From NCBI GenBank assembly GCA_016189835.1, contig JACPRU010000040.1:1230-65229 (forward strand): a stretch of DNA of 64,000 nt, read 5' to 3'. Source of the stretch: Deltaproteobacteria bacterium. GTDB lineage: Bacteria; Desulfobacterota; Binatia; JACPRU01. Shown piece by piece: positions 44,603 through 63,043 of the stretch (positions within the stretch are counted from its first letter, which is position 1; every line of letters starts with the position of its first letter). The notes below the pieces were generated by a model that was given only the letters and a program-made list of their open reading frames with translations, was not told the DNA's origin and searched no databases. Position numbers and translations under genes: made by a program.

Positions 44603-46027
44603 TCAGCCCGCCGAACGCGTCGCCGCATGGCCGTATGCGGCTTCCGCGGCCTGCTCTCCCGAGCGGATGCAATCCGGCAGGCCGACGGCGCCGAGGCTGC
44701 CGCCGGCGAGGAACAGCCCGGCGTGGGACGCGAGCCGGCGGGCGATCGATGCGGCGCGCCGCGGGAAGCCGACCTCGTACTGCGGCATCGACCGCACGGC
44801 GCGCGTCGCGCGCGCGAAGCGCGGCTCGCCGCGGATGCCGAGAATGGCGCACAGCTCGCGGTCGACGAGCGACACGAGGGCGCCCTCGGAGAGCTCCGCC
44901 AGCGCCGGTCGCAGCGCGCCGCCGACGAAGCAGCGCACCAGCAGCTCGCCGCTGGGCCAGCAACCGGGGTATTTGAGGCTCACGTAGCTCGCGGCGAGCA
45001 GGTCGCGGCCCTCGCTGCGCGGCACGAAGAAGCCGAAGCCTTCGAGCGGCCGAGCGACGTCGGCGTCTCGGTAGGAGAGGTGGACGATCGCGCAGGAGGC
45101 GTACCGCTGGTCCCCCACCTCGCGCGCGAGGTCGGCATCGACGTCGCGCAGCGCCGGCGCCGATGCATAGGCCGGGCAGGCGAGCACCACCGCGTCGGCC
45201 AGGATCGCCGTCGAGCCGCCGGTGATCAGCCGCCAGGAGCCGTCCGGGTCGCGCGCGAGAGCGCGCAGCGGCGTGCGGGTGCGCGCCGCGCCCTCGGGCA
45301 GCCGCTCGACCAGCCGCTCGACGATCCGGCCGACGCCGCCGCGCGGGTAGGCGAAGCCGACGCCGCCGTGCGGCCGAATCGGCCCGCCGCCGGGGGAGCG
45401 GCGCAGGCCACGGCTCACGCTGCCGAACGCTCGCTCCATCTCGACGAAGCGCGGCAGCACGGCCGAGACCGAGAGCGCGTCCGCGTCGGCCATGAACACG
45501 CTGGCGAGCACGGGCTCAGCGGCGCGCTCGAGCACCTCGCCGCCGAAGCGCCGGGTGACGAACGATGCGAGGCTCTCGTCGTCGCGCGCGGGGGCCGGCG
45601 GCACGAAGCGCTCGAGCGCCATGCGCAGCTTCCCCCACGGCGAGAACAACGGCGAAACGACCACGGGCCAGAGCCGGGTCGGCGCCGTCATGAGAAATCC
45701 CGGCGGCAGCTCGCGCAGCCGGCCGCCGACCAGGACGCGCGCGCCGCCGCCGGCGTCGACCCGCAGCAGCTCGCCGTCGATGCCGAGGCGCTCGCAGAGC
45801 TCGACGCCGGCCGGCTTGGCGAGCAGGAACGAATCCGGACCGGCTTCGAGTAGCGCCGCGCCGACGCGATCGGTGCGAACCAGGCCGCCGAAGCGCCCGG
45901 CCGCCTCGAGCACGACGAGGGAGGGCGGCTCGCCGCGCTCGCGGCACAGCTCGCCCAGGCGGTGGGCGGTGGCGAGGCCGGCGATGCCTCCGCCGACCAC
46001 GGCGAACCTTCTGCGCTCGGGGCTCAT
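44603..46027 (-). CDS. hemY: Protoporphyrinogen/coproporphyrinogen III oxidase (HemY-type FAD enzyme)
   Basis: 474 aa from ATG 46027 (ATGA overlap with the hemH stop). Motifs FAVVGGGIAGLATAH and a C-terminal GLFLAGGSLGAVGLPDCIRSG. Confidence 0.8.
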   Translation of the reverse strand: MSPERRRFAVVGGGIAGLATAHRLGELCRERGEPPSLVVLEAAGRFGGLVRTDRVGAALLEAGPDSFLLAKPAGVELCERLGIDGELLRVDAGGGARVLVGGRLRELPPGFLMTAPTRLWPVVVSPLFSPWGKLRMALERFVPPAPARDDESLASFVTRRFGGEVLERAAEPVLASVFMADADALSVSAVLPRFVEMERAFGSVSRGLRRSPGGGPIRPHGGVGFAYPRGGVGRIVERLVERLPEGAARTRTPLRALARDPDGSWRLITGGSTAILADAVVLACPAYASAPALRDVDADLAREVGDQRYASCAIVHLSYRDADVARPLEGFGFFVPRSEGRDLLAASYVSLKYPGCWPSGELLVRCFVGGALRPALAELSEGALVSLVDRELCAILGIRGEPRFARATRAVRSMPQYEVGFPRRAASIARRLASHAGLFLAGGSLGAVGLPDCIRSGEQAAEAAYGHAATRSAG

Positions 46028-47082
46028 CGCTCCGCCAGCCAGCGCGACGCGTCGCGGGCGATCGCGACGACCGCCTCGGCCCACGCGTCGCGGGCGTTCA
46101 GCGACGGCACCAGGCGCAGCGTATCACCGCCGTTCGCGCGCCAGTCGTCGGCCGCGCGCAAGCCGATCTCCTCGATCGTCTCGAGACAGTCGGCGACGAA
46201 CGCCGCCGAGATCACCAGCGCCCGCTTCACGCCGCGCCGCGCGGCGGCGCGGATCTCGACGTCGGTGAAGGGACGGATCCAGCGCGGCGAGAACCGCGAC
46301 TGGAAGCAGACGAGGCGCCGTTCGGGCGGCACGCCGAGCGCGTCCGCGAGCAGCCGCGCGGTCGTGAGGCACTGCGCGCGGTAGCAGTCGCCGAGCGCGC
46401 CCGGGTTCTCGACGGCGGCGCGCGCGCAGCAGTCGGCGGCGGCGAGGCAATAGCCGCCGCGGCGGTCGCTCTTGCGGATCTGGCTCTGCGGCAAGCCGTG
46501 GAAGCTGAAGAACACGAGCTCGGGATCGACCTCACGCAAGAGCGGGGCCGCGCTCTCGGCCATCGCGGCGATGTAGCGCGGGTCGTCGAAGAAGGGCGGC
46601 ACGACGTGCAGGTACGGAACGTTCCATCGCCGCGAAGCCTCGGCGAAGACGCGCTCGATCGAGGAGCCGGTCGCCGCGGCGCTGTGCTGCGGATAGAGCG
46701 GGAAGACGACGAGCCGCCGCACGCCCTCGCGGTGGAAGCCGTCGATCGCCTCGGCGATCGACGGCCGGCCGTAACGCATGGCGAGCCGCACGACCGCCGC
46801 CGCGCCGAGGCGGCTCTGCACCTTGGCGGCGAGGTCCAGGCCGTGGAAGACGAGTGGCGAGCCGCGCTCGCTCCAGATCTTGGCGTAGGCGCGCGCCGAG
46901 CGCCGCGGGCGCAGCGGCAGGATGAAGAGGTTCAGCACCAGCCAGCGCAGCGCCGCGGGCAGGTCGAGCACGCGCGGGTCGGAGAGGAACTCGCGCAGGT
47001 AGCGGCGCACCGCGGCCGGGTGCGGCGCGTCGGGGGTGCCGAGGTTCACGAGCAGCAGGCCGGGAAGGTCGCGCGGCGGCAT
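46024..47082 (-). CDS. hemH: Ferrochelatase
   Basis: 352 aa: LLLVNLGTPDAPHPAAVRRYLREFLSDPRV and ISAAFVADCLETIEEI. Confidence 0.9.
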   Translation of the reverse strand: MPPRDLPGLLLVNLGTPDAPHPAAVRRYLREFLSDPRVLDLPAALRWLVLNLFILPLRPRRSARAYAKIWSERGSPLVFHGLDLAAKVQSRLGAAAVVRLAMRYGRPSIAEAIDGFHREGVRRLVVFPLYPQHSAAATGSSIERVFAEASRRWNVPYLHVVPPFFDDPRYIAAMAESAAPLLREVDPELVFFSFHGLPQSQIRKSDRRGGYCLAAADCCARAAVENPGALGDCYRAQCLTTARLLADALGVPPERRLVCFQSRFSPRWIRPFTDVEIRAAARRGVKRALVISAAFVADCLETIEEIGLRAADDWRANGGDTLRLVPSLNARDAWAEAVVAIARDASRWLAER

Positions 47083-47691
47083 TCACGATCCCGCTTTCGA
47101 TTCCTCGAGCACGCGGCGCGAGCGCCAGAAGACCTCGTCGAGCCCGAGCGGGTCGGCGCCGTAGCCGCCGCGCAGGCCGCCCGCGGCATCGACCAGAAAG
47201 ATCTCGCCGCCGGGCGCCGCGTCGAGACCCGCGCTCCGTCCGGCCGCGGCGGCGGCGGGCTCGATCCGGAATCCGTGCTCGGCGAGCTCGCGCACCTGCT
47301 CGCGCGGCCCGTGCAGCAGCACCCAGCGCCGGGGATCGAGGCCGTGGGTCTTCGCGGCTTCGCGCGCGCGCGCCGCCGCGCCGTCTTCGCGATCGGCGCT
47401 GATGCTCACCAGGCGAATCGAGTCGAGCCCCTCGTCGCGATAGCGGCGGGCGAGGCTCGACATCGCCTGCAGCCGGGCGGGCGTCGCGGCGAAGCTCGCC
47501 ACGTAGACGTGTCCGCGCAGCTCGTCGCTGCCGTAGCGCTCGCCGCTCGCCGTCATCAGCGAGAACTCCGGCACCTGCCCGATCACCGGCGGCGGGTCGG
47601 GGATCCGGCGCAAGAGCGGCCGCATCAGCGTGATCACCGCGCACCCCACGACGAACGCCCACAGGAAGGGGTTGCGCAGCCCGCGGCTCAT
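47083..47691 (-). CDS. SCO1/SenC-like thioredoxin-fold protein lacking the CxxxC copper site
   Basis: 202 aa with an N-terminal TM. VPEFSLMTASGERYGSDELRGHVYVASFAATPARLQ aligns by eye with the SCO motif F(G/T)xTxCPDVCP, but both Cys are replaced. ISADRED and WVLLHGPREQV match the SCO blocks ISVDPERD and WxxLTG. Confidence 0.55.
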   Translation of the reverse strand: MSRGLRNPFLWAFVVGCAVITLMRPLLRRIPDPPPVIGQVPEFSLMTASGERYGSDELRGHVYVASFAATPARLQAMSSLARRYRDEGLDSIRLVSISADREDGAAARAREAAKTHGLDPRRWVLLHGPREQVRELAEHGFRIEPAAAAAGRSAGLDAAPGGEIFLVDAAGGLRGGYGADPLGLDEVFWRSRRVLEESKAGS

Positions 47692-47957
47692 CGTGGGATC
47701 AGCTTCTCGAGGATCGCGGCGAACTTGTGCTGGCGGAGGTTCTGGCGGGCGTTCAGCAGGATCAGCAGGACGATGACGGCGCGGGGCGCGAGCGCGAAGC
47801 CGGGATCGCGCAGCCGCTCGTAGCCGTAGACGGCGGCGAGCGCCAGCGCCACCGCGATGCTCGCGTTCGAGAGGCTCGAGAACAGACGCTTGCGGCGAAT
47901 CGCCCGCCCGGCGAAGGCGCGTTCGGCCTCGGTGAGTGGCTCGTCTCGTTCGCTCAT
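47688..47957 (-). CDS. Small membrane protein (2 TM), first gene of the hemH operon
   Basis: 89 aa from ATG 47957. ATGA overlap with the downstream SCO-like gene. Confidence 0.4.
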   Translation of the reverse strand: MSERDEPLTEAERAFAGRAIRRKRLFSSLSNASIAVALALAAVYGYERLRDPGFALAPRAVIVLLILLNARQNLRQHKFAAILEKLIPR

Positions 47958-48190: not shown

Positions 48191-48838
48191 GTGGCACAGA
48201 TCTTTTCCGAACGAATCAATCGACTTCCCCTGTTCCTCGGCGTCGGGGCGCCCCTCGGCTTGGTCGGCGCGATCGCGTTCGTGTGGTACTTCTTCTCCCC
48301 CTGGTACACGGACGTCGGTTACCAGCCGACGCAGCCCGTCCCGTACAGCCACCGCCTGCATGCGGGCGACATGGAGATCAACTGCCGCTACTGTCATGCG
48401 ATGGCGGAGATCTCGCCGGCGGCCGGCGTGCCGCCCACTCAGTCGTGCATGAACTGTCACACCCTGGCGATGAAGGACAGCCCGCGGCTGCAGCCGATTC
48501 GCGACAGCGCGGCGGATGGCCTTCCCATGCGCTGGGTGCGCGTGCACGAGCTGGCCGACTACGTCTACTTCGAGCACGCCTCGCACGTACGGGCGGGCGT
48601 GGGCTGCGTGTCGTGTCACGGCCGCATCGACCAGATGGACGTCGTGCGCGAGGAGAAGCCGCTCAGCATGAGCTGGTGCCTCGACTGTCACCGCGACCCC
48701 GCTCCGAATCTCCGGCCCGTGGATCAGGTGACGAACATGCGCTGGGTCCCGCCGCCGAATCATCCCGAGTGGGCGCTACGGACGATCCAGGAGCGCGGCA
48801 TCCAGCCGCCGGTCGACTGCTCGGGGTGCCATCGGTGA
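48191..48838 (+). CDS. actA: Alternative Complex III-type pentahaem cytochrome c (ActA)
   Basis: GTG start and an N-terminal TM. Five CxxCH motifs (CRYCH, CMNCH, CVSCH, CLDCH, CSGCH). QPVPYSHRLHAG...INCRYCH is typical of ActA. Confidence 0.85.
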   Translation: MAQIFSERINRLPLFLGVGAPLGLVGAIAFVWYFFSPWYTDVGYQPTQPVPYSHRLHAGDMEINCRYCHAMAEISPAAGVPPTQSCMNCHTLAMKDSPRLQPIRDSAADGLPMRWVRVHELADYVYFEHASHVRAGVGCVSCHGRIDQMDVVREEKPLSMSWCLDCHRDPAPNLRPVDQVTNMRWVPPPNHPEWALRTIQERGIQPPVDCSGCHR

Positions 48839-48929
48839 GCCAAGACTCCGCGACCCGGCGGCCGGCGAAGGGCGAGGAGCGGCCCCGGGACGGTGTTCCC
48901 GAGCGGCCGGAGCGCTCGCGGGGACGCGA

Positions 48930-51862
<2,933 letters not shown>

Positions 51863-51866
<4 letters not shown>

Positions 51867-52558
51867 AGGGGCACGCGAAGAAGGCGGCGCAAGAGGCTGC
51901 GGGGGGAACGGGTTTGCTTGGGACGGACTCGTCGCCGTCCACGGCGCAAACCCGTTCCCCCCGCAGCCGTGTCACCGGGCATCTGCTGATCGTAGTCCTC
52001 GGCGCCGTGCTCGCCGTCACCACGCTGGAGGGCTGCATGCGCGGCTGCGGCTCCTCGCGGCCGCCGATCCACCCGAACTACAGCATGTTCAACCAGCCGA
52101 AGTACCGCCCCTATGGCGCCAGCGCGTTCTTCTACGACGGAGCGGCGATGCGCCGGCCGGTGCCGGGCACCGTGGCCCGCGGCCACCTCGTCGAGGATCC
52201 GGTACTCGAGAGCGGCAAGAGCGCCGACGGCTCGCCGGTCGCCTCCTCGCCCGTGGCGGTGGACGAGGCGCTCGTCGACCGCGGCCGCGACCGCTACGGC
52301 ATCTATTGCCAGCCCTGCCACGACGAGCGCGGCGAGGGCAAAGGCATTCTCTTCCAGCGCGCCAAGGTGCCGACCGCGAACCTGCTCGACAAGCGCATCC
52401 GCGACCTGCCCGACGGCAGCCTGTTCGACACCATCACCAACGGCAAGGGGCTGATGGCGGGCTACCGCTATCCGATCCGCGCGCGCGACCGCTGGGCGAT
52501 CATCGCCTACGTGCGGAGCCTGGAGAAGGCGCAGGCGCAGAGGGAGGCCGCGCGGTGA
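51863..52558 (+). CDS. actE: ActE-like lipoprotein monohaem cytochrome c
   Basis: GTG 51863 overlaps the actB stop. Signal/lipobox-like LIVVLGAVLAVTTLEGC. MFNQPKYRPYGASAFFYDGAAMRRPVPGTVARG, CQPCH and RDRWAIIAYVRSLE match ActE. The first 35 codons are a palindromic element, so the start is uncertain. Confidence 0.7.
51895..51968. repeat. Perfect 23-bp inverted repeat with nested 6-bp inner hairpin
   Basis: GGCTGCGGGGGGAACGGGTTTGC (51895..51917) and its exact reverse complement (51946..51968). The 28-nt spacer contains GGACGG/CCGTCC (51921..51940). Confidence 0.9.
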
Positions 52559-54426
52559 ACCGTCGAGCGCTCCTCGGCATCGTCGGCGCGTTCCTGCTGC
52601 TCACCGCGGTGCTGCGCGTGTGGGTGGCGGTCAACGATCGGGCCTACCGGGCGCCGGTCTACTCCACCCAGGTGCAGCCGGTGCCGCGCGAGCAGGGCAT
52701 CGCCGATCAGCAGAAAGCGGCCGAAGCCAAGGCCAAGGCCAAGAAATACGAGGCGCCGACGTACCGTCAGTTTCCGTTCGTCGGCAGCCGCGTGGCGATC
52801 TGGGTGGTCGCCGAGCTGCACCTGATGTTCGCCGCCTTCGTGCTCGCCGTACCGATGTTCGCGTTCATCATCGAGGTGATCGGCTACGCGACCGGCGACA
52901 AGCGCTACGACCGGCTGGCCTTCGAGTTCACCAAGCTGCTCTCGACCTCGTTCTCGTTCACGGCGAGCTTCGGCGGCTTTCTGACCTTCATGCTGATCGC
53001 GCTCTACCCGGCGTTCACGAACTACCTGATGGAGGTCTTCTCGCCGACGTTCCTGCCCTACGTGCTGCTGTTCTTCGCCGAGGCGGGCTGCCTCTACAGC
53101 TACTACTACGGCTGGGGCAAGTTTCATCCGCTCGTCCACCTCGCGCTCGGCCTGGCGATCAACGTGGTCGGCACCCTGATCATGTTCATCGCCAACGCCT
53201 GGGCCTCGTTCATGATGACGCCGCAAGGCATCTCCGACTCCGGGGCGCTCGTCGATCTCTACGCCGCGTTCGACAACTTCACGTGGATGCCGATCAACAT
53301 CCACCGCTTCATCGGCAACATCGCCTTCGGCGGATCGGTGGCCGCGGCGTACGCGGCGTGGAAGTTCCTGCACGCCGAGACCGACGAGCAGCGCGCCCAC
53401 TACGACTGGATGGGCTACGTCGGCAACTTCGTCGCGATCAGCGCGTTCCTGCCGCTGCCGTTCGCCGGCTACTACCTCGCCGCGGAGATCTACGCCTACA
53501 ACCAGGCACTCGGCATCATGATGATGGGCGGCGCGTTCTCCTGGCTGTTCATCATCCAGGCCGTCTTGATCGGCAACCTGTTCCTCGCCGCCAACTACTA
53601 CCTGTGGCTCGGCATGGGCCGGGTCGAGGGTGTGCAGGCCTACCAGAAGTACGTCAAGTACCTGCTGGCGGCGATCGCCGTGTGCTTCGCGGTGTGGGCG
53701 ACGCCGCACTCGCTCATCGCCACCACCGCCGAGATCCGCGCGATGGGCGGAACGCTGCATCCGATGCTCGGCTACCTCGGCGTGATGTCGGCGAAGAACA
53801 CCGCGGTGAACGTGCTGATCCTCACCACGTACGTGAGCTTTCTCTTCTATCGCCGCACCGGAAAGCGGCCGACGGTGTCTTGGGCGAAGCTCGGCAACCT
53901 CGTGCAGTTCCTGATCTTCGCGGCCTCCACCGCGATCGTGATCTTCTACGGCATCTACGGCTACTTCGTGGAGGCGGCGGTGCGCATCGCCTTCTCGGTG
54001 CCGCAGGTGCTGTCGGTGCTGGTGGCGATGGTATTGATGACGGTGATCGACATCTTCCTCATGCGCGGCGCCCACGCCACGGGCGAGACCCACTGGGGCA
54101 AGATCCCGGCGGTCTCGCAGTACGTGCTGATCTTCATCGCCGTGACGTTCACCTGGCTCATGGGGCTGATGGGCTACGTCCGATCGGGCCTCCGCCAGCA
54201 CTGGCACGTGTACGGCGTGCTGGTGGATTCTTCGCCCGATGCCTTCACGCCCACGCTGGGATTCGCGGCCAACGTCGTCTCGGTCTGCGTGATCCTGTTC
54301 TTCGCGCTCATCGCGTTCGTGTTCTGGCTCGCCAGCCTGCACGACAAGAGGGATTGGGGGACGACGCAATCCGACGAGCCGGCCCACGGCGGGCACGCGC
54401 CGAAGAGGGTGTCGGCGGGCTCATGA
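52555..54426 (+). CDS. Cytochrome bd subunit I (CydA)-like polytopic membrane protein, no CydB partner
   Basis: 623 aa, GTGA overlap with actE. By eye it aligns to E. coli CydA at AELHLMFAAFVLAVPMF (H19 region), FFAEAG (E99 region), IANAWASFMM, NIHRFIGNIAFGG...AAW (H186 region) and GLRQHW (GRQPW region). It has a much shorter Q-loop and extra C-terminal TM helices. Confidence 0.6.
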   Translation: MNRRALLGIVGAFLLLTAVLRVWVAVNDRAYRAPVYSTQVQPVPREQGIADQQKAAEAKAKAKKYEAPTYRQFPFVGSRVAIWVVAELHLMFAAFVLAVPMFAFIIEVIGYATGDKRYDRLAFEFTKLLSTSFSFTASFGGFLTFMLIALYPAFTNYLMEVFSPTFLPYVLLFFAEAGCLYSYYYGWGKFHPLVHLALGLAINVVGTLIMFIANAWASFMMTPQGISDSGALVDLYAAFDNFTWMPINIHRFIGNIAFGGSVAAAYAAWKFLHAETDEQRAHYDWMGYVGNFVAISAFLPLPFAGYYLAAEIYAYNQALGIMMMGGAFSWLFIIQAVLIGNLFLAANYYLWLGMGRVEGVQAYQKYVKYLLAAIAVCFAVWATPHSLIATTAEIRAMGGTLHPMLGYLGVMSAKNTAVNVLILTTYVSFLFYRRTGKRPTVSWAKLGNLVQFLIFAASTAIVIFYGIYGYFVEAAVRIAFSVPQVLSVLVAMVLMTVIDIFLMRGAHATGETHWGKIPAVSQYVLIFIAVTFTWLMGLMGYVRSGLRQHWHVYGVLVDSSPDAFTPTLGFAANVVSVCVILFFALIAFVFWLASLHDKRDWGTTQSDEPAHGGHAPKRVSAGS

Positions 54427-54917
54427 GATCTCCGGTCGGCGTCAACGTGGTCCTGGTGGTGGCGGGCGCGACGCTCTTCTACACCTACGTCGGCCAGCTC
54501 GTGCCGCAGAAGGAGCTGCAGCCGCCGCCGAAGGTCGAGATCACCCAGGAGATGACGCCGGTACAGCTCGCCAAGGTCGGCGACGAGCTCGCGCGCGGCA
54601 AGGGCATGTGCCTCACCTGCCACACGGTCGGGCACAGCGGCGGGCCGCTCCGCTATCCCGACCTCGCCGGCGTGGCCGAGCGGGCCAAGACGCGCGTCGC
54701 GGGGCTCGATCAGCTGCACTACTTCGCGCAGTCGGTCTGCCAGCCGGACGCGTTCGTCGTCGCCGGCTTCGCGCCGGGCATGCCGGCCATCCACAGGCCG
54801 CCGATCGGGCTCTCCGACGAGGAGCTGCACGCGGTGGTCGCGTGGCTCCAGAGCCAGGGGGGGCAGGCGACGATCACCTTGAAGGAGAAGCTGCCGTACT
54901 GCGGAGGCCCCGGGTGA
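54423..54917 (+). CDS. Membrane-anchored monohaem cytochrome c
   Basis: 164 aa with an N-terminal TM and one CxxCH (CLTCH). ATGA overlap with the upstream gene. Confidence 0.7.
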   Translation: MRSPVGVNVVLVVAGATLFYTYVGQLVPQKELQPPPKVEITQEMTPVQLAKVGDELARGKGMCLTCHTVGHSGGPLRYPDLAGVAERAKTRVAGLDQLHYFAQSVCQPDAFVVAGFAPGMPAIHRPPIGLSDEELHAVVAWLQSQGGQATITLKEKLPYCGGPG

Positions 54918-54930
54918 GCGGAGACCGCGC

Positions 54931-55758
54931 ATGAAGCTCGCGATCGTCCTTGCCGTCGTCGCCGTGATGGTCGTGCTGCGCCTGGTGCGCGCCGGGCTGC
55001 TCGTGTGGCTCGCCGCCTGGTGGGTCGGCACGTACGCGGTGCTGCGCTACGGCTTCGTGACGCCGATTCCCGCTTCCGCCCTGCACATCTTCATGGCGAT
55101 CACGGCGCTCTCGCTGTTCGCCTACGCGACGTCGAGCCGCGAGCGGATGCGCGCGACCTACGAGCCGGTCCTCGCGTTCGCGAGCGAGAGCCGCTTCACG
55201 CTGCCGCTCGCGCTGGTGGCCGCGTCGATTCCCGGGGTCGTCGCCTGGAGCGTCTACCAGGGCCTGCAGCAGCCGCTCCAGCCGCCTTACTTCGGGCGCA
55301 CGGTCCACCCGTCGCCGCCCGCCGAGATCACGTCGCGCGGCGAGAAGGTCGATCTCGCGCGCGCCGCCAACCCCTTCCGCAATCTCGAGAAGACGGACGT
55401 CCAGGCGTTTCGCCGGCACGTCGAGAACGGCCGGCGGGTTTACTACCGCAACTGCTTCTTCTGTCACGGCGACGACCTCGGCGGCGCCGGGATGTACGCC
55501 CACGGCCTCGACCCGGTGCCCGCGAACTTCCTCGACTCGGGCGTGCTGCCGATGTTCCAGGAGTCGTTCTTCTTCTGGCGCATCGCCAAGGGCGGCCCGG
55601 GCATGCCCGACGAGGGCGCCCCCGGCGACTCGGCGATGCCCGAGTGGGAGCGCATGCTCAGCAACGAAGAGATGTGGGACGTGATCCTGTTCCTCTACGA
55701 CGACGCGGGCTACCGGCCGCGGGCGCTCGAGGCAGTCGGCGCCGAGGTGGCTCACTAG
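54931..55758 (+). CDS. Polytopic (about 4 TM) membrane protein with C-terminal monohaem cytochrome c domain
   Basis: 275 aa with one CxxCH (CFFCH), followed by MPEWERMLSNEEMWDVILFL, typical of class I cytochromes c. Confidence 0.7.
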   Translation: MKLAIVLAVVAVMVVLRLVRAGLLVWLAAWWVGTYAVLRYGFVTPIPASALHIFMAITALSLFAYATSSRERMRATYEPVLAFASESRFTLPLALVAASIPGVVAWSVYQGLQQPLQPPYFGRTVHPSPPAEITSRGEKVDLARAANPFRNLEKTDVQAFRRHVENGRRVYYRNCFFCHGDDLGGAGMYAHGLDPVPANFLDSGVLPMFQESFFFWRIAKGGPGMPDEGAPGDSAMPEWERMLSNEEMWDVILFLYDDAGYRPRALEAVGAEVAH

Positions 55759-57456
55759 ATGCCTCCGATTTCGCGACGCCACGAGGCCTCCTCCTGGGTG
55801 ACGCTCGCCCTGGCCCTGGCGGCGCTGCCGTGCTTCGCCGCGCCCGCGCCCGACCTCGGCACGGATCAGCAACGACAGGCGGGAAAGCCGCTCTACGACC
55901 GGCACTGTTCGCAGTGCCACGGCGAAAAGGGGGACGGCCTCGGCGTGGCGGCGCCGTTCCTCAGCCCCAAGCCCCGCGACTTCACCTCCGGCAAGTTCAA
56001 GATCCGCACCACGCCGAGCGGCGCACTGCCCACCACGCAGGATCTCAAGGCCATCATCCGCGCCGGGATGCCCTACACCGCGATGCCGGGCTGGCCGCAG
56101 TTCAACGACCGGCAGCTCACCGACGTCGCGTACTACGTGAAGTCGTTCGCCGCGGACTTCGCCGACCCCGATCGCCAGCCCGAGCCGATCCAGAGCCCGC
56201 CGGTGCCGGCCATCAGCGGCGAATCGATCGGCAGAGGCAAGAAGCTCTACGAGGAGCTCGGCTGCGCACGCTGCCACGGCGAGACGGGCCGCAGCGACGG
56301 CGTCGCGGCGCCGACGCTGACCGACGACTGGGGATACCTGATCCGCTCCGCCGACCTCACTCGGCGCTGGACGTTCCGCGGCGGCCCGACGCGCCAGGAA
56401 ATCTTCCGTGCATTCTCGACCGGCCTGAACGGTACGCCCATGCCTTCGTTCGTCGACGCGCTGACGGTCGAGCAGCGCTGGGATCTCGCCGACTTCGTCT
56501 ACTCGCTGTCGCCGAGGGACTCGCCGGAGTACGCGACGCTGCTCGTCGCCAAGAAGGTCGCACGCGAGCTGGACCTGGCCGAAGGGGCGAAGCTCTTCGA
56601 GGAAGCCGAGCCCGCCTACTTCCCGGTGATCGGCCAGATCATGCAGCCGGGGCGCGCGTTTCACCCGTCGTGCAACGGCATCGCCGTGCGCGCCGTCTAC
56701 AACGAGACCGACATCGCCTTCGAGCTGCGCTGGAACGACATGCGGGCGGAGGTCACGGGCAAGAACGGACCCGAGCTGGCGGTGGCGGCGGCCGAGGACG
56801 AGGGCGACGAGCCCGCCGCGGCGCCGCCGGCCGCTGAAGGTGGCGGCGGGTGGGGCGACGCGGAAGCCGCCGCGCCGGCGGCCGAGCCCGCCGCGGCGCC
56901 GGCCGACGTTTGGGGAGAAGGCGAAGCCGGCGCCGCGGCGTCTGCGGCCGTACCGCAGAGCGAATTCTCCGACGCCGTGGCCATCCAGTTCCCGGCCGAG
57001 AAGTCGCTGACGATCCGCAAGCCCTACTTCGTCTTCGGCGACAAGGGCAACGCCGTCAACCTCTGGTTCGTCGACCTCGCGAAGCCGGAGCCGGCGCTGT
57101 ACGTCGGCCGGGGCAGCGACTCCCTGGAGCCGCTCGGGCCCCGCGATCTGACGGTCACCCGCGGCTACGACAAGGGCGAATGGACCGTCGTCTTCAAGCG
57201 GCGGCTGCGCAGCCAGGGAGAGGTCACGTTCGAGGAGCAGGGCTTCCTGCCGATCGCCTTCTCGGTGTGGGACGGCCTCGCCGGCGAGCGGGGCAACAAG
57301 CGCGGCCTCACCAACTGGTGGACCGTCTATCTCTCGCCCGACGAGAAGCCGTCGCTCGTCCGCGAGATGGCGAAGTGGGGGGGGCTGGCGTTCGCGCTCG
57401 AAGTGGTGTTCATCGGCTGGGCACGCCGCCGCGCGCACAACTCGGCGGGATCCTGA
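55759..57456 (+). CDS. Dihaem cytochrome c fused to EB_dh-like (type II DMSO-reductase gamma-subunit-like) haem-b domain, C-terminal TM anchor
   Basis: 565 aa with a signal peptide and two CxxCH (CSQCH, CARCH). The C-terminal about 270 aa (AVRAVYNETDIAFELRWND...DAVAIQFP...NLWFVD...GEWTVVFKRRL...IAFSVWDG) resemble the ethylbenzene-dehydrogenase gamma/NxrC-type domain from memory. Terminal TM is GGLAFALEVVFIGW. Confidence 0.55.
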   Translation: MPPISRRHEASSWVTLALALAALPCFAAPAPDLGTDQQRQAGKPLYDRHCSQCHGEKGDGLGVAAPFLSPKPRDFTSGKFKIRTTPSGALPTTQDLKAIIRAGMPYTAMPGWPQFNDRQLTDVAYYVKSFAADFADPDRQPEPIQSPPVPAISGESIGRGKKLYEELGCARCHGETGRSDGVAAPTLTDDWGYLIRSADLTRRWTFRGGPTRQEIFRAFSTGLNGTPMPSFVDALTVEQRWDLADFVYSLSPRDSPEYATLLVAKKVARELDLAEGAKLFEEAEPAYFPVIGQIMQPGRAFHPSCNGIAVRAVYNETDIAFELRWNDMRAEVTGKNGPELAVAAAEDEGDEPAAAPPAAEGGGGWGDAEAAAPAAEPAAAPADVWGEGEAGAAASAAVPQSEFSDAVAIQFPAEKSLTIRKPYFVFGDKGNAVNLWFVDLAKPEPALYVGRGSDSLEPLGPRDLTVTRGYDKGEWTVVFKRRLRSQGEVTFEEQGFLPIAFSVWDGLAGERGNKRGLTNWWTVYLSPDEKPSLVREMAKWGGLAFALEVVFIGWARRRAHNSAGS

Positions 57457-57469
57457 CCGGGAGGCAGCG

Positions 57470-59494
57470 ATGTACAAGACCATCTACGTTCCGGTGGACA
57501 ACTCCGACTTCTCCAATCAGGCCGTTCGCCTGGCCATCGATCTCGGCAAGAGCTTCGGCTCGAAGATGGTGGGCTGCCACGTCTACGCGGCCAAGATGCA
57601 CGACTACCGCTTCAAGCAGATGGAGTACACGCTGCCCGCGGAGTACCTCGAGGAGACCGAGCTCGAGCGGCAGCGGAAGATCCACGACAGCCTGATCACC
57701 ATGGGCTTGAAGCTCATTTCCGACAGCTATCTCGCGTCGATGGAGCAGCAGTGCGGGGCGGCCGGCCTCGAGTTCGAGCCGCGCATGACGGACGGCAAGC
57801 ACTCGACCGAGATCGTCAAGGACCTCGCCGCGGGCGGTTACGACCTGGTCGTGCTCGGCGTGCTCGGCCTCGGCCGCGTGCGCGACAGTCAGGTGGGATC
57901 GGTTTGCGAGCGCGTGGTGCGTCACGCCAGGCAGGACGTGCTCGTGGTCAAGCAGTTGCCGAACGGGGACGGCGCCGCGCGCGACACGATCCTGGTCGGC
58001 ATCGACGGCAGCCCGCAGTCCTTCGGGGCGCTCTTGACGGCGACCGACCTCGCCAAGCGCTTCGGCAAGAAGGTCGAGGCGATCGCCGTCTACGATCCCT
58101 ACCTCCACTACACCGTGTTCAACGGCATCGTGAACGTGCTCAGCGAGAAGGCGGCCAAGGTCTTCCGCTTCGAGGAGCAGAACCAGCTGCATGAGGAGGT
58201 GATCGACACCGGGCTCGCGCAGATCTACCAGTCGCACCTCGAGGTGGCCGCGAAGATGGCGGTCGAGACCGGCTTCGAGATCCAGAAGACGCTGCTCGAC
58301 GGCAAGGCATTCCAGAAGGTGTTGAACCACGCCCGCAAGATCGATCCCTGGCTGCTGGTGGTCGGCCGCACGGGGATTCACGGCGTGAAGGACGAGACCG
58401 AGCTCGGCAGCAACGCGGAGAACCTGTTCCGCAGCTGCCCGTGCGACCTGCTGCTCACCACCCGGCTCGAGGTCCCCGAGCTCGACGTCAAGGCCGAGGA
58501 GTCGATCCGCTGGACGGCTGAGGCCGAGGAGCGCATGACCCGCGTGCCGCCGCTCGTGCAGGGGATCGCGCGCACCGCGATCTACCGCCTGGCGATCGAG
58601 AGGGGCCACAGCGTGATCACCAGCAGCCTGCTCGACGAGGCGATGGAGCGGTACATGCCGAAGGGCGCGAAGGCGACGACGCGGCTGGCCGAGAGCGTCG
58701 TGCTCGAGCACGCGAAGGACCGGGCGGTGTCGATCTGCAAGAAGTGCGGCGTGTCGGCGGCCGAGGCGAGCCCCGTCGCGTGCGCGGTCTGCGGCGGCGA
58801 CGCCTTCCACGTGATCTCGCCGGGAATGGTCGAGGAGATCATCGAGAGCGAGGGCGGAGCGCAGGCCGAGACCACCTACGACGGCCGCACGCTCACCTGG
58901 ACGCGCGAGGCCAAGCGGGCGTTGTGGACGATTCAGGACGGCTACCAGCGCCGTCGCACCAAGGCGCGGGTCGAGAAGGCGGCGCGTCTGAGGCGGTTCG
59001 AGGCCGTGAGCCTGGAGCTGGCCCGGGCGCTGATCGAGGAGGAGACCGGCGAGCCGCTGGTGCTGCCGCCGCGAGGCGCCGAGGCGCCCCCGCCGCCGGC
59101 CGAGACGCAGGACGGCAAGAAGCTCGTTGCCCGTGACGAGAAGCGCAACCCCTTGTTCTCCGCGCTCGACTGGCAGCCGGACGCGGTCATGCGGATCCTG
59201 CGCGTGCCGGCCGGGTTCATGCGCAACCGCACGCAGCAGAGGATCGAGGACCTGGCACGTGAGCGCGGCGCCGACGCGATCGACCTCGCGCTCGTCGAGG
59301 AGGGCATCGAGCAGGGCCGCCAGCTCATGGAAGAGATGATCCAGGAGTACAAGGCGAATCCGCAGGCCGCGCGCGCGACGACGACTCGCCCCGAACCGCC
59401 GCCGTCCGCCGCGGCTCCCGCTTCCGACGGTTTGCCGCTGAACGAGGTCGGCGTCATGGCGGTCATGGAAGCGAGGCGGGCCGGTAAGGCCTGA
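57470..59494 (+). CDS. Tandem universal stress protein (UspA x2) fused to zinc ribbon and three PCP_red-like domains
   Basis: 674 aa. Usp motifs (IYVPVDNS...GSVCERVVRHARQDVLVV; ILVGIDGS...LGSNAENLFRSCPCDLLL). CKKCG...CAVCG. Three W(T/Q)xEAxxxLxRVPxFV...ERG...-type domains at about 58505..58657, 58892..59041 and 59165..59329. Confidence 0.6.
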   Translation: MYKTIYVPVDNSDFSNQAVRLAIDLGKSFGSKMVGCHVYAAKMHDYRFKQMEYTLPAEYLEETELERQRKIHDSLITMGLKLISDSYLASMEQQCGAAGLEFEPRMTDGKHSTEIVKDLAAGGYDLVVLGVLGLGRVRDSQVGSVCERVVRHARQDVLVVKQLPNGDGAARDTILVGIDGSPQSFGALLTATDLAKRFGKKVEAIAVYDPYLHYTVFNGIVNVLSEKAAKVFRFEEQNQLHEEVIDTGLAQIYQSHLEVAAKMAVETGFEIQKTLLDGKAFQKVLNHARKIDPWLLVVGRTGIHGVKDETELGSNAENLFRSCPCDLLLTTRLEVPELDVKAEESIRWTAEAEERMTRVPPLVQGIARTAIYRLAIERGHSVITSSLLDEAMERYMPKGAKATTRLAESVVLEHAKDRAVSICKKCGVSAAEASPVACAVCGGDAFHVISPGMVEEIIESEGGAQAETTYDGRTLTWTREAKRALWTIQDGYQRRRTKARVEKAARLRRFEAVSLELARALIEEETGEPLVLPPRGAEAPPPPAETQDGKKLVARDEKRNPLFSALDWQPDAVMRILRVPAGFMRNRTQQRIEDLARERGADAIDLALVEEGIEQGRQLMEEMIQEYKANPQAARATTTRPEPPPSAAAPASDGLPLNEVGVMAVMEARRAGKA

Positions 59495-59586
59495 GAGCGG
59501 AGCGCGTTGTCACCTCTGCGGACCGTGCGACGCGTCTTCCGCCGGCGGCGGACACCGAGGGGTCGCCGGAGGTAACGGGCGCCTGC

Positions 59587-60426
59587 ATGTCGGGCTATCG
59601 CTTCTGCCGCACGGACGACATCCCCGCTCTGGTCGACGCCTACAACGACTGCTGGCTGCCGCACTTCGCCCCGCAGGCCCCGCTGACCGTCGACGCCTTC
59701 AAGCGCGAGGTTCGCGAGATCCATCTGTGGGCGTCGAGCTGCATGCTGGCGACCGAGGACGACCGGTCGATCGGCGTGCTGCTCGGCGCCAAGCGCGACG
59801 ACGCCAACTTGGTGCGGGCGATCGCCCTGCGGCCTGGCCACGAGCGCCGCGGTCATGGCCGGCACCTGCTCGATTCGCTGCGCCGCAAGGTCGCAATCCT
59901 CGGACCGCGGCGGCTGCTCGTCGAAGTGCCGGCGGAGTGGGGGGGCGTGCGGCGCTTCTTCGAGCGGTGCGGCTTCCACGCCGAGGCCCGCTACGTGGAT
60001 TTCGCGCACGCGGCGCCGCGGCGCGCGCCGGTGGCTCCGGCGGCGCTGGTTTCGGCGATCACCCTCGAGGAGCTGCGCGAAGCCGGGGCGTTCGACCCGC
60101 CTCCGGGTTTGCCCTGGGAGCGGTCCCCGCAAACGCTCGTCAACCGCAGTCGACAGATAGAGGGCCTGGCGGTGGCTTCCGACGTGCGCATCGAGGCCTA
60201 CCTGCTCCATCGCCGCGTCGGGGCCGGCAACGAGCTGCTCGCCGTGGGCGGCCCGCGGGCCGAGCTCTTGCATCTGCTGCTCGCCGGACTCTATGAACGG
60301 ACGAGCGGCCCGATCACGTTTCCCAAGGTGAGCGAGCGGGAGACGGCTCACGCCGCTCTGCGGGACCTCGGGTTCGAGTCCGTGCGCGAGCACGTCGGGT
60401 ATGCGGCCGAGCTGAGCGAATCGTGA
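59587..60426 (+). CDS. GNAT-family acetyltransferase-like protein
   Basis: 279 aa. IALRPGHERRGHGRHLLDSL (acetyl-CoA-binding R/QxxGxG-like block) and FFERCGF. Confidence 0.5.
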   Translation: MSGYRFCRTDDIPALVDAYNDCWLPHFAPQAPLTVDAFKREVREIHLWASSCMLATEDDRSIGVLLGAKRDDANLVRAIALRPGHERRGHGRHLLDSLRRKVAILGPRRLLVEVPAEWGGVRRFFERCGFHAEARYVDFAHAAPRRAPVAPAALVSAITLEELREAGAFDPPPGLPWERSPQTLVNRSRQIEGLAVASDVRIEAYLLHRRVGAGNELLAVGGPRAELLHLLLAGLYERTSGPITFPKVSERETAHAALRDLGFESVREHVGYAAELSES

Positions 60427-61292
60427 AGAGCTACTTCGACATCGCCGGCGACGGCGGCTCGCGCGTTCTCGAGCAGGTCCGGGCCAAGCAGTCGCGCATC
60501 GCCGCGGCGCTCGCGGGCGTGCGGCGCATGGTGGCGGTCGGCTCCGGCAAGGGCGGCGTCGGCAAGAGCACGCTCACCCTGCAGCTCGCCCACGCGCTGC
60601 GCGAGGACGGCGCCTCGGTCGCGATCCTCGACGCCGACCTGAACGGTCCCAGCCAGGCGCGCATGACCGGGCTCGGCTCGGTGGCGCCGGTACCGGGGCC
60701 CGACGGGCTCGTCCTGCCGCGCACCGCCGCGGGCATCGGCGTGGTGTCGATGGGCCTCTTCGTCCCCGAGTCCGCGGCGCTCGACTTCGAGAGCGTCGCC
60801 GCCGGGGACAGCTACGTGTGGCGGGCGACCAAGGAGTTCGCGGTGCTCGGCGATCTGCTCGCCGGAGTCGCCTGGGGCCCGCTCGACTTCCTGCTCGTGG
60901 ACCTGCCGCCCGGGGCGGAGCGCACCGTGCAGTACGCCGAGTTCTTCGGCGCCGCCGCCGCGCTCGTGCTCGTCACCTTGCCCTCGGATCTCTCTCGCGG
61001 CGTGGTCGCGCGCTCGGTAGCGGGGCTCCGCCGGGCGCCGAATCGAGTGCTCGGTTACGTGGAGAACATGAAGGGCTACTGCTGCAGCGAGTGCGGCTCG
61101 GTCCGTCCGCTGTTCGCCGAGTCGTCCGCGATCGATCTCGGCATCCCCTGTCTCGGCGCGGTGCCGTTCGATCCCGCGCTCGCCGCCGCCTGCGACCGCG
61201 GCGAGCCGCTGCCCGCAGCGGCCGCCGGCCCGGCGTGGCCTGCGGTTCGTTCCGTGGCCGCGGCGATCCGCGGCGCACTGGAGGCGTCATGA
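60423..61292 (+). CDS. Mrp/NBP35/ApbC-family P-loop ATPase (Fe-S cluster carrier)
   Basis: GTG start overlapping the upstream stop. VGSGKGGVGKST, DADLNGPS, VENMKGYCCSECG. Confidence 0.85.
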   Translation: MKSYFDIAGDGGSRVLEQVRAKQSRIAAALAGVRRMVAVGSGKGGVGKSTLTLQLAHALREDGASVAILDADLNGPSQARMTGLGSVAPVPGPDGLVLPRTAAGIGVVSMGLFVPESAALDFESVAAGDSYVWRATKEFAVLGDLLAGVAWGPLDFLLVDLPPGAERTVQYAEFFGAAAALVLVTLPSDLSRGVVARSVAGLRRAPNRVLGYVENMKGYCCSECGSVRPLFAESSAIDLGIPCLGAVPFDPALAAACDRGEPLPAAAAGPAWPAVRSVAAAIRGALEAS

Positions 61293-61702
61293 AGTTTCTC
61301 TGCGTGCTGTGCGATCAGCCGATGAAGCTCGTCGAGGTCGCGCCGCCGGATCGCGGCGCGCTCAGCGTGCTCTACGAGTGCCCCGAGTGCGCGCACCGCA
61401 TCGCCATGCTCACCAACCCGTTCGAGACGCAGATGGTGACCTCGCTCGGCGTCGAGATCGGCCCGGGCGGCGAGAAGACCGAGTCGAAGTGCCCGTTCTC
61501 GGCGATGGTGCCGGGCGCGGGCGCGCCCGGCGCCGAGAGCGGCGTGACCTGGACCGCGAGCGCGCTCCGGCGCCTCGAGCGGATCCCCGAGTTCGTGCGG
61601 CCGATGGCGCGCGGCGGCATCGAGCGCTTCGCACGCGAGCGCGGCCTCAGCGAGGTCGACGAGGCGGTGCTCGACGAGGCGAAGAGCTTCTTCGGCATGT
61701 AG
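61289..61702 (+). CDS. Zinc-ribbon + PCP_red-like domain protein
   Basis: 137 aa, ATGA overlap. CVLCD...CPEC ribbon. The C-terminal VTWTASALRRLERIPEFVRPMARGGIERFARERGLSEVDEAVLDEAK strongly resembles the ChlB/BchB C-terminal (PCP_red) domain. Confidence 0.6.
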   Translation: MKFLCVLCDQPMKLVEVAPPDRGALSVLYECPECAHRIAMLTNPFETQMVTSLGVEIGPGGEKTESKCPFSAMVPGAGAPGAESGVTWTASALRRLERIPEFVRPMARGGIERFARERGLSEVDEAVLDEAKSFFGM

Positions 61703-63043
61703 GTGGAGACCCGGGATTCGCCGCCCGTCTTCCGATCGGGAACCGACGTGGACGCCTCCTTCGCACGACCGTACGTCATCTCCTGGAACCTGACGTATCG
61801 CTGCAACCTGGCCTGCGAGCACTGCTACCTCGACGCCGGCGGCAAGCCCGAGGTCGCCGCCCCCGCCTTCGCGGACCGCAGCGAGCTATCGACCGAGGAA
61901 TGCCTGCGCGTCGCCGACGAGATCGCCGCCTTCGCCCCGGACTGCCTGCTGATCCTGACGGGCGGGGAGCCGCTGCTGCGGCGCGACATCCTGGAGATCG
62001 TCCGCCACGCCGCGGCCCGGGGGCTGTGGGTGGTGGTGGGCACCAACGGCGTGAAGATCACCGAGAACCTCGCGGAGATCCTGCGCCGCGAGGGAGCCCG
62101 CGGCCTGTCGCTCTCGCTCGACGCGCTGGACCCGGAGCGGCACGACCGCTTCCGCCGCGTGCGCGGCGCGTGGCGCAACACCGTGGAGGGCGCCAAGATC
62201 CTCGCGCGCGCGGGCCTGCCGTTCATCGTGCAGACCACCGTCGCCCGCCACAACGTCGGCGAGCTCGCCGCCATCGCCGCGTTCGCCTGCGAAGAGCTCG
62301 CGGCGAGCGTGTGGAACCTCTTCTTCCTGGTTCCGACCGGCCGCGGGGCGCACGTCTCCGACCTCGACGCCGCCGCCTACGACGGCGTGCTCGCCGAGCT
62401 GCAACGGCTGCAGCGCCGCTTCGCCGGGCGCATGCTGGTCAACGCGAAGTGCGCGCCGCACTACGTCCGGCTGCTGCAGGGCGAAGCGGGGCAGGGGGCG
62501 GTGGTCAAGGGCTACGCCGGCGGCGCCGGCGGCTGTCCCGCGGGCACCCACTACCTCGGCATCCGTCCGAACGGCGACGTCACGCCGTGCCCCTACCTGC
62601 CGCTGTTCGGCGGAACGTTGAAGCGCTCGACCCTGCGCGAGATCTGGAGCGATTCGGATCCGTTCGTGCGCATCCGCGACCGCGCGCGGCTCGGCGGCCG
62701 CTGCGGCGCTTGCGAGCTGAACGCGGCCTGCGGCGGCTGTCGCGCACGCGCCTTCGGCATGACCGGCGACGTGCTCGCCGAGGACCCGCTGTGCACGCAT
62801 CAGCCCGGAACCTTCGGCCGGCCGGCGGCCCCGGACGTCGAGTACGGCGGGGCGGTCGAGACGACGCTGCCGTGGGACGCGGCGGCGCGCGAGCGCATGC
62901 AGCAGGTCCCCGCCTTCGTGCGCGGCATGGTCAGCCGCCGCGTCGAGGCCTACTGCCGCGAGCAGGGGCTGCCGCGCGTCACCGAGCAGGTGCTCGGCGA
63001 GATCCGCGCGCGCATGCCGACGCCGAAGCTGTTCGGCAGATGA
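61703..63043 (+). CDS. Radical SAM/SPASM enzyme (AhbD/NirJ-like haem-modifying type) with C-terminal PCP_red-like domain
   Basis: GTG start immediately after the upstream stop. CNLACEHC (CxxxCxxC), GGEPLL, SPASM Cys clusters (CPAGTHYLGIRPNGDVTPCPY; CGACELNAACGGCRARA). C-terminal LPWDAAARERMQQVPAFVRGMVSRRVEAYCREQGLPRV. Confidence 0.85.
   Translation: METRDSPPVFRSGTDVDASFARPYVISWNLTYRCNLACEHCYLDAGGKPEVAAPAFADRSELSTEECLRVADEIAAFAPDCLLILTGGEPLLRRDILEIVRHAAARGLWVVVGTNGVKITENLAEILRREGARGLSLSLDALDPERHDRFRRVRGAWRNTVEGAKILARAGLPFIVQTTVARHNVGELAAIAAFACEELAASVWNLFFLVPTGRGAHVSDLDAAAYDGVLAELQRLQRRFAGRMLVNAKCAPHYVRLLQGEAGQGAVVKGYAGGAGGCPAGTHYLGIRPNGDVTPCPYLPLFGGTLKRSTLREIWSDSDPFVRIRDRARLGGRCGACELNAACGGCRARAFGMTGDVLAEDPLCTHQPGTFGRPAAPDVEYGGAVETTLPWDAAARERMQQVPAFVRGMVSRRVEAYCREQGLPRVTEQVLGEIRARMPTPKLFGR

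Follow-up and report, generated by a model that had tools for sequence, protein, structure and literature searches.

Gene and fold

The gene at 52555-54426 (+ strand) raises the question of whether it encodes a subunit of a quinol-oxidising cytochrome bd or a haem protein of another function that is served by other electron donors. The database annotation of the product is "cytochrome ubiquinol oxidase subunit I". The window, meaning the whole stretch of 64,000 nucleotides that was analysed, comes from a Binatia/"Deltaproteobacteria"-type MAG. The initial annotation described a CydA-like protein at this place, and this was borne out by Pfam, the profile and the fold. The ORF is real, encodes 623 aa with 14 TM helices, and begins at a GTG codon that overlaps the stop codon of the upstream gene (GTGA); homologues of 613-644 aa span 96-100% of the protein. 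The Pfam model Cyt_bd_oxida_I (PF01654) matched with E=1.2e-21, over residues 78-314 only, which correspond to profile positions 2-239 of 418. CydA chains of the PDB matched the family profile at 4e-18 to 6e-7 (hmmsearch), with 5doq_A at 4e-18. The gene was found by profile methods only and was missed by a tblastn of the window with the single E. coli CydA sequence.

The AF2 model (pLDDT 80, pTM 0.79) contained 14 helices, in agreement with the hydropathy, and its ten best Foldseek matches were all CydA (E=3e-9 to 2e-6). The fold is therefore like that of the canonical CydA of E. coli (6rko), G. thermodenitrificans (5doq) and M. tuberculosis (7nkz), with Foldseek E values down to 3e-9. A fusion of CydA and CydB was rejected, as E. 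coli CydB gave a probability of 0.2% against the family profile.

CydA-derived core and candidate ligands

The residue equivalences to CydA were taken from profile-profile alignments (hhalign) with a family profile of 220 sequences. TM1-TM6 (residues 74-312; 52774..53490, +) aligned to residues 4-245 of E. coli CydA with P=1e-14. In this region H89 (ELH89L) corresponds to H19, the His19-type axial ligand on TM1, and is kept in 217 of the 220 sequences, while H250 (IH250R) corresponds to H186, the His186-type low-spin haem ligand on TM5, and is kept in 218. The proposals that ELHLMFAAF and NIHRFIGN represent the H19 and H186 regions agreed with these positions. The motif FFAEAG had been matched to the FFLE motif and labelled as the E99 region. 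The match to FFLE stood but the label did not; E176 (FFAE176) is equivalent to E107 of FFLE107, and the position of E99 is occupied by Y169/P168. H195 corresponds to H126, and H89, E176, H195 and H250 are each at least 97% conserved among the 220 homologues. Tyrosines at positions 169, 183 and 185 accompany E176 and H195 of the cytoplasmic proton pathway.

The second homologous region, TM11-13 (residues 480-598; 53992..54348, +), aligned to E. coli CydA 388-499 with P=4.7e-5 to 7e-5, and the reversed controls gave 0.2-0.6. It contains W534 (=W441) and R547-Q-H-W550 (=R448-Q-P-W451), which supports the earlier pairing of GLRQHW with GRQPW. The glutamate of the E445 region, already noted as not evident, is indeed replaced; its position falls on L538 or S544 according to the register, and there is no acidic residue at either. 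M393 aligned to V485, and to K414 by paralogy. The Met-rich LGIMMMGG (322-324) that had been placed at M393 belongs to a helix for which no homology to TM7 of CydA was detected. Among the proposed ligand positions, the equivalents of H19 and H186 were retained in the profile alignment but that of M393 was not. Altogether, TM1-6 and TM11-13 are collinear with TM1-6 and TM7-9 of CydA.

Residues that are invariant among the 220 homologues and new in comparison with canonical bd are H402, H549, H551, K414, E473 and several Met. The His pair of HATGETH (507 and 513), which had been pointed out in the initial annotation, was not conserved among these homologues at either position. In canonical bd, the residues at the E99 and E445 positions are ligand or active-site residues. 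Because their equivalents here are non-acidic, the active site differs from that of canonical bd. A cofactor complement different from the canonical one is only indirectly supported, by the change of E99 to Tyr, that of E445 to Ser/Leu and the new invariant residues.

Replacement of the Q-loop by inserted helices

In the profile alignment of the family, the counterpart of the Q-loop (E. coli CydA residues 246-387) is absent, and the Q..K....E motif with the quinol-binding residues K252 and E257 was not found in the protein. The initial annotation assumed a Q-loop of about 50 aa; the position in fact holds about 160 aa as four TM helices (TM7-10; residues 313-473; 53491..53973, +), which are absent from canonical CydA and are present as helices in the AF2 model. 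The periplasmic loop of this insertion (residues 382-410) carries the invariant residues E393, M397 and H402, followed by M411, K414 and N415. The extra helices were also thought to lie at the C-terminus, but the C-terminus is collinear with CydA, and the additional helices are four internal ones and one at the N-terminus.

TM9-10 (residues 420-470; 53812..53964, +) repeats the TM11-12 hairpin in tandem (hhalign Prob 94%, P=1.2e-7, against P=0.41 for the reversed control). At the level of profile comparison, this shows that two of the inserted helices arose by tandem duplication of the TM7-8 hairpin of CydA. TM7-8 of the protein gave no signal as a third copy of this hairpin or as a copy of TM5-6 (P=0.07-0.4). 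The N-terminal extra helix (TM0) was considered as an element for ActAB docking that is exclusive to ActAB loci, and this was rejected; orthologues without ActAB also begin with a hydrophobic helix, and the divergence is in the TM0 sequence only.

Organisation of the gene cluster

Neither CydB nor a second CydA was found in the window by tblastn with E. coli queries, in line with the earlier statement that CydB is missing. The gene is followed by three cytochrome genes on the same strand. The first (54423..54917) encodes a membrane-anchored monohaem cytochrome c (PF00034; 7zs0_A 1.5e-24), and the second (54931..55758) a monohaem cytochrome c with hydrophobic N-terminal helices (PF13442). In the product of the third (55759..57456), which is anchored by a C-terminal TM segment, a dihaem cytochrome c is joined to a haem b domain of the EbdC-like kind (EB_dh) (PF00034 twice, PF09459; TIGR03477 1.6e-22; 6h5l_B 3.8e-49; 2ivf_C 1.4e-5). 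This order was found in each of the 66 related loci whose downstream DNA was long enough. The initial annotation spoke of a bd-like scaffold repurposed with other partners and other cofactors. The different partner set is supported by the absence of CydB and the Q-loop and by the operon common to the 66 loci; the cofactor part has the indirect support of the residue changes. In comparison with canonical bd, cytochromes would take the place of quinol as the electron donors.

Upstream of the bd-like gene, also on the + strand, are genes for close orthologues of three subunits of alternative complex III (ActABCDEF; Rhodothermus marinus 6f0k), in the same order. ActA (48191..48838; 6f0k_A 2.1e-77) is a membrane-anchored pentahaem cytochrome c with five CxxCH motifs. 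ActB (48930..51866; 6f0k_B 2.4e-297) is TAT-exported (TIGR04519) and combines a molybdopterin-like domain and an Fe-S domain (Fer4) in a fusion. ActE (51863..52558; 6f0k_E 2.7e-45) is a monohaem cytochrome c with one CxxCH motif, and its start was placed at the GTG that overlaps the stop codon of actB. Alternative complex III also has the NrfD-type quinol-oxidising subunits ActC and ActF, together with ActD, whereas these are absent from the operon and the window, and none was called in the syntenic loci. The sole polytopic membrane subunit of this locus is the bd-like haem protein; besides it, the window has polytopic ORFs for V-ATPase subunit I, SBF, MFS and HlyIII only. A resemblance of the inserted or C-terminal helices to NrfD, as a substitute for ActC, was rejected because no NrfD-type fold was detected among the Foldseek matches. 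ActA/B/E stand upstream of the bd-like operon in 47 of 62 related loci. Since the other 15, from several phyla, keep the core operon without them, ActABE is an add-on rather than a part of the core.

Downstream, from 57470 to 63043 on the + strand, is a set of accessory genes identified by Pfam and NCBIfam, with synteny conserved across phyla. They encode a Usp+PCP_red protein (57470-59494), a GNAT protein (59587-60426), an Mrp/NUBPL protein (60423-61292), a small PCP_red protein (61289-61702) and an AhbD/NirJ2-like radical SAM/SPASM+PCP_red protein (61703-63043). These genes possibly serve cofactor maturation; the radical SAM enzyme, the PCP_red-domain proteins and the Mrp-type Fe-S carrier would probably mature or deliver the cofactors of the bd-like protein. 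The neighbourhoods of distant paralogues (30-36% identity; P0149, P0161) were unrelated and uninformative.

Assignment to the OR-N2 subfamily

Murali, Gennis and Hemp (2021, bioRxiv 10.1101/2021.01.16.426971) described the OR-N2 subfamily as having 14 TM helices, and its operon as encoding several cytochromes c together with a homologue of EbdC. The signature in their Supplementary Table 6 was matched by H89, Y169, E176, Y183, Y185, H195, H250, M411/N415, S544 and W550, each at least 93% conserved, and from H250 to W550 they are spaced exactly as in the reference. The glutamate at the E107 position (E176) sets the protein apart from OR-N1, which has G there, and no OR-N1 paralogue was found nearby by tblastn of the window. 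By its signature residues, spacing, 14 helices and operon, the product of 52555-54426 matches subunit I of the OR-N2 bd-like proteins. The same subfamily has appeared as NIDE0901 of Nitrospira (Lucker 2010/2013), and as bd-like clade I / TO_1 of Ca. Manganitrophus, and it likewise lacks the quinol site and is accompanied by two cytochromes c and the EbdC-like periplasmic cytochrome b.

In published work OR-N2 is viewed as a putative cytochrome-c-oxidising terminal oxidase, and high expression was reported in Nitrospira and Manganitrophus. The idea of a bd-like oxidase is already published (Lucker 2013, PMC3578206; Murali et al. 2021). As the family was already known with its chief peculiarities, the present discovery is incremental. 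Unlike the described OR-N2 proteins, the one studied here belongs to a host that is not a nitrifier, and it has ActA-ActB-ActE upstream with no ActC/D/F, an arrangement for which no earlier description was found in the literature searched. The family is large: its homologues number more than 7,400, at least 575 species genomes carry it, and its carriers outside the nitrifiers include Acidobacteriota, Binatia, Bacteroidota/Rhodothermales and Fibrobacterota. Complete genomes such as OY970399.1 and OZ241363.1 are among those with the cluster.

Proposed function

We consider it probable that the OR-N2 bd-like membrane subunit is a cytochrome-c-fed O2 reductase. Two or three haems of the b type would be bound by the subunit close to the periplasmic face, and electrons would be delivered by the co-encoded periplasmic proteins, namely the two monohaem cytochromes c and the dihaem-c/EbdC-type haem b protein, instead of quinol. 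In this lineage, the wire of ActA (five haems), ActB (Fe-S) and ActE (one haem), taken over from alternative complex III, may also donate. O2 would be reduced to water with cytoplasmic protons, as in a cytochrome-c-type terminal oxidase, and membrane potential would thereby be generated by charge separation. ActB usually docks on a quinol-oxidising subunit of the NrfD type. That partner is absent here, and some quinone interaction is conceivable.

A bolder proposal, which we offer tentatively and hold to be less likely than the O2 reductase above, is that in Acidobacteriota/Binatia-type bacteria the ActA/B/E wire has moved from its NrfD-type quinol-oxidising base to the OR-N2 protein, and the result would be a hybrid respiratory complex of a kind not described before. 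The insertion of four helices, which in part is a duplicated TM7-8 hairpin with the invariant K414, E473 and H402, might then contribute ligands for a haem or a metal that are new, or a new quinone site, and a dedicated AhbD/NirJ-like radical SAM enzyme might tailor the cofactor together with the PCP_red tetrapyrrole-binding proteins.

It is unlikely that the bd-like protein replaces ActC/ActF as the quinone-interacting anchor of an ACIII-like quinol:cytochrome c oxidoreductase, or one running in reverse, and is not an O2 reductase. This arrangement would account for true actA, actB and actE adjoining the bd-like gene with actC/D/F missing, and for the recurrence of ActABE in most of the 62 loci, and Lucker et al. 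(2013) raised such a possibility for bd-like oxidases. However, the Q-loop and all known quinol-binding residues are missing, the core operon occurs in several phyla without ActA/B/E, and the near invariance of the His19-type ligand and the proton-channel residues fits haem catalysis.

Nor do we find it likely that the protein is a periplasm-fed haem reductase or detoxifier acting on NO, H2O2, nitrite or chlorite-type substrates, and not a respiratory O2 reductase. The replacement of E99 by Y and of E445 by S/L, with H402, H549, H551 and K414 newly invariant, would suit another substrate. The partner homologues 6h5l_B and 7zs0_A stand in the PDB as hypothetical cytochromes, and in nitrite oxidisers and anammox bacteria relatives of the subfamily are encoded within NXR gene clusters. 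On the other hand, none of the genes of the conserved operon codes for a periplasmic enzyme that would turn over such substrates, MAGs of ordinary soil Acidobacteriota and Bacteroidota commonly carry the subfamily, and O2 is favoured by the consensus of the literature. A canonical quinol-oxidising CydA with CydB/CydX encoded elsewhere, to which the database name would point, is refuted by 14 TM helices instead of 9, by the loss of the Q-loop, K252 and E257, by M393 and E445 not being kept, and by a window that has no CydB and a conserved operon of another kind.

Significance

In nitrite oxidisers and in manganese-oxidising Nitrospirota, the putative OR-N-type bd-like oxidases are presumed to serve as the main terminal oxidases, and this locus shows that OR-N2 is very common beyond nitrifiers. 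The analysis provides a structural map of the protein, with the CydA-derived helices, the site of Q-loop replacement, the internal hairpin duplication and a few invariant residues that are candidate ligands. The gene context adds two leads for biochemistry, the presence of ActABE without ActC/D/F and a conserved gene set resembling those for haem tailoring.

The bd-like gene and its relatives

The bd-like gene (52555-54426, + strand), which lies in a window of ~70% G+C, encodes a CydA relative of 623 aa. Its GTG start codon shares GTGA with the stop of the gene before it, and its stop shares ATGA with the ATG of the gene after it; these overlaps fit a translationally coupled operon. An identical protein sequence is already in public data. 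A protein database search scored more than 7,400 homologues, the best 120 of which have 613-677 aa and at least 70% identity, and a library of 50%-identity representatives held 1,203 relatives at E<=0.001. When one genome per species was scanned, at least 575 species proved to carry a close relative, most of them Acidobacteriota (Vicinamibacterales, Thermoanaerobaculia, Polarisedimenticolia) and "Deltaproteobacteria"/Binatia-type MAGs, with further carriers in Rhodothermales/Bacteroidota, Fibrobacterota and Calditrichia. Two distant bd-like paralogues of ~630 aa (P0149 and P0161) share 30-36% identity with the query; both are orphan genes without cytochrome partners and possibly represent another OR-N subfamily.

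Homology to CydA

The bd-like protein is CydA-like. Its match to Pfam PF01654 (E=1.2e-21) is limited to residues 78-314 (profile positions 2-239 of 418). With phmmer and the family profile its PDB matches are CydA chains only, and the top ones (5doq_A, 4e-18; 9r2g_A, 5e-17) cover the N-terminal half only. The ten best PDB fold matches of the AlphaFold2 model (pLDDT 80, pTM 0.79) are all CydA, from E. coli bd-I and bd-II, M. tuberculosis, M. smegmatis, C. glutamicum and Geobacillus (E 3e-9 to 2e-6; TM-score 0.44-0.59, normalised by target length), and CydB chains rank next.

A family alignment of 220 bd-like sequences was compared by hhalign with a canonical CydA alignment of nine species, consisting of E. 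coli and eight plasmid-borne cydA genes from Actinomycetota, Bacillota, Deinococcota, Pseudomonadota and Halobacteria. Residues 74-312 correspond to E. coli CydA 4-245 (Prob 98%, P=1e-14). The H19 and H186 matches proposed in the initial annotation hold in this alignment, as H89 (217/220) and H250 (218/220), respectively. FFAE had been read as the E99 region, but its glutamate E176 (215/220) aligns to E107, and Y169/P168 occupy the E99 position. H195, conserved in 219 of the 220 sequences, aligns to H126. Residues 480-598 pair with E. coli CydA 388-499 in a collinear second alignment (P=4.7e-5 to 6.9e-5; reversed-sequence controls, P=0.22-0.59), with W534 at W441 and G540 at G447. The proposed GRQPW match is borne out by R547-Q-H-W550, which aligns to R448-Q-P-W451, and a glutamate is indeed absent at E445, where L538, or S544 in the ungapped register of Murali et al., is found. 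LGIMMMGG had been assigned to M393, but M393 aligns to V485. HATGETH is not conserved in the family alignment. The residues M323/M324, E393, M397, H402, R477, M536, M539, R543, H549 and H551 are near-invariant and lie on the predicted periplasmic side. The initial observation is partly confirmed.

Replacement of the Q-loop and internal duplication

The AlphaFold2 model has 14 helices. TM0 (residues 3-27) is an additional N-terminal helix relative to CydA. According to the model and both hhalign alignments, TM1 (78-113), TM2 (116-150), TM3 (152-185), TM4 (192-221), TM5 (244-272) and TM6 (277-315) are CydA TM1-6, and TM11 (474-502), TM12 (519-550) and TM13 (568-595) are CydA TM7-9. TM7 (317-354), TM8 (367-381), TM9 (411-434) and TM10 (444-471), within residues 313-473, take the exact place of the CydA Q-loop, which is replaced by these four membrane helices. 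In the profile alignment E. coli CydA 246-387 has no counterpart, and the Q..K....E motif was not found in the protein; therefore neither a 50-aa Q-loop nor a C-terminal extension exists, and the C-terminal helices once counted as extra are collinear with CydA TM7-9.

TM9-10 (residues 420-470; 53812-53964) are a tandem duplicate of TM11-12 (residues 491-541; 54025-54177), with an hhalign Prob of 94% and P=1.2e-7 (reversed control, 0.41), and hhalign detected no relative of TM7-8. In the duplication register K414 on TM9, invariant in 219/220, falls on the M393 position, with M411 (215/220) one helical turn ahead, and E473, acidic in 206/220, is the paralogue of S544. We found no mention of this hairpin duplication in the cited bd-like literature.

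Assignment to OR-N2

Murali, Gennis and Hemp (bioRxiv 10.1101/2021.01.16.426971) split the superfamily into qOR, OR-C and OR-N, the last without a quinol site, and described OR-N1 and OR-N2 with 14 helices. Their OR-N2 signature (Table S6: H99, Y183, E190, Y197, Y199, H213, H269, M430/N434, S563, W569) is found here as H89, Y169, E176, Y183, Y185, H195, H250, M411/N415, S544 and W550, with identical spacing from H250 on, whereas OR-N1 carries Gly at the E107 position and has other spacing. The TO_1 cluster of Ca. Manganitrophus is a counterpart of this operon, and the NIDE0901-like protein of Nitrospirales, seen as their likely cytochrome-c-oxidising terminal oxidase, is of the same type. In 2013 Lucker et al. 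(PMC3578206) had already described 14 helices, noted that the N-terminal part, which bears the haem b ligands, is conserved, and placed membrane helices where the Q-loop would be. Our protein is thus a member of an already known kind, and the initial interpretation of a repurposed bd-like scaffold is partly supported, its essence being already published.

Gene neighbourhood

The genes actA (48191..48838), actB (48930..51866) and actE (51863..52558) lie upstream on the same strand (48191-52558, +) and are close orthologues of three subunits of Rhodothermus alternative complex III (ACIII): ActA, with five CxxCH motifs, matches 6f0k_A (2e-77), ActB 6f0k_B (2e-297) and ActE 6f0k_E (3e-45). No NrfD-type ActC/ActF and no ActD was found in the operon or in the rest of the 64-kb window, and the bd-like protein is the sole polytopic membrane protein of the cluster. 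Elsewhere in the window, a V-type ATPase subunit I-like membrane protein is encoded at 5969-8206 (-; PF01496, 1e-20). Among 62 related loci with sufficient upstream DNA, actA-B-E directly precede the bd-like gene in 47; since it is the first operon gene in the other 15 (Bacteroidota/Rhodothermales, Fibrobacterota, Calditrichia and some Acidobacteriota), the universal core comprises four genes, to which ActABE is added in particular lineages. The published pairings found of ACIII with bd-like proteins concern OR-N5 or clade V proteins and include ActC, and the literature searched held no description of an ActC-less OR-N2 and ActABE arrangement.

Domain searches placed two monohaem cytochromes c (54423-54917 and 54931-55758, both +) downstream, and domain and PDB profile searches a fusion of a dihaem cytochrome c with an EB_dh/EbdC-type haem b domain (55759-57456, +). 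In each of the 66 related loci with sufficient downstream DNA, these three genes come after the bd-like gene, which fits the published OR-N2 operon. The first cytochrome matches the "Hypothetical (Diheme) protein" of PDB 7zs0-7zs2 (1.5e-24), and the dihaem part of the fusion (55759-56520) matches 6h5l_B, "Conserved hypothetical cytochrome protein" (3.8e-49); relatives of partner subunits therefore have solved structures.

An accessory set further downstream (57470-63043, +), kept across phyla, encodes a Usp and PCP_red protein, a GNAT, an Mrp/NUBPL Fe-S carrier, a small PCP_red protein and an AhbD/NirJ2-like radical SAM/SPASM protein with a C-terminal PCP_red domain (TIGR04545, 294 bits, under the cut-off of 500). 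In BchB, PCP_red forms the C-terminal domain and caps the bound tetrapyrrole. The presence of three PCP_red proteins and a haem-type radical SAM enzyme suggests tetrapyrrole tailoring or delivery, and this set may serve the bd-like complex in that way. Upstream of the operon, a divergent group at 44603-47700 (-) holds a hemY-like protoporphyrinogen/coproporphyrinogen oxidase gene, ferrochelatase hemH and a SCO1/SenC-like gene; SCO1 recurs at this position in related loci, hemH/hemY sometimes.

Proposed function

The bd-like protein combines a haem-binding core of the CydA type, which includes the His19 and His186 ligands, with E107/H126-type proton-channel residues, and is without a quinol site. 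Its gene is obligately linked to genes for ten c-type haem motifs and a single EbdC-type haem b domain; in the lineage of the window the link extends to the ActB Fe-S domain. Electrons would enter from the periplasmic side via the cytochromes to the H250 haem and move on to the haem site at H89; there, cytoplasmic protons would be used to reduce O2. Drawing periplasmic electrons and cytoplasmic protons to O2, the complex would be a cytochrome-c-type terminal oxidase, and the charge separation would build membrane potential. We consider this putative function probable. A quinone-interacting, ACIII-like role of the bd-like subunit, to which its ActABE neighbours could point, seems unlikely beside the missing quinol site, and we hold it similarly improbable that the complex reduces another small oxidant. 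A canonical quinol oxidase is refuted. To a well-documented family this locus contributes a map of homology helix by helix, the internal duplication and two leads from gene context.
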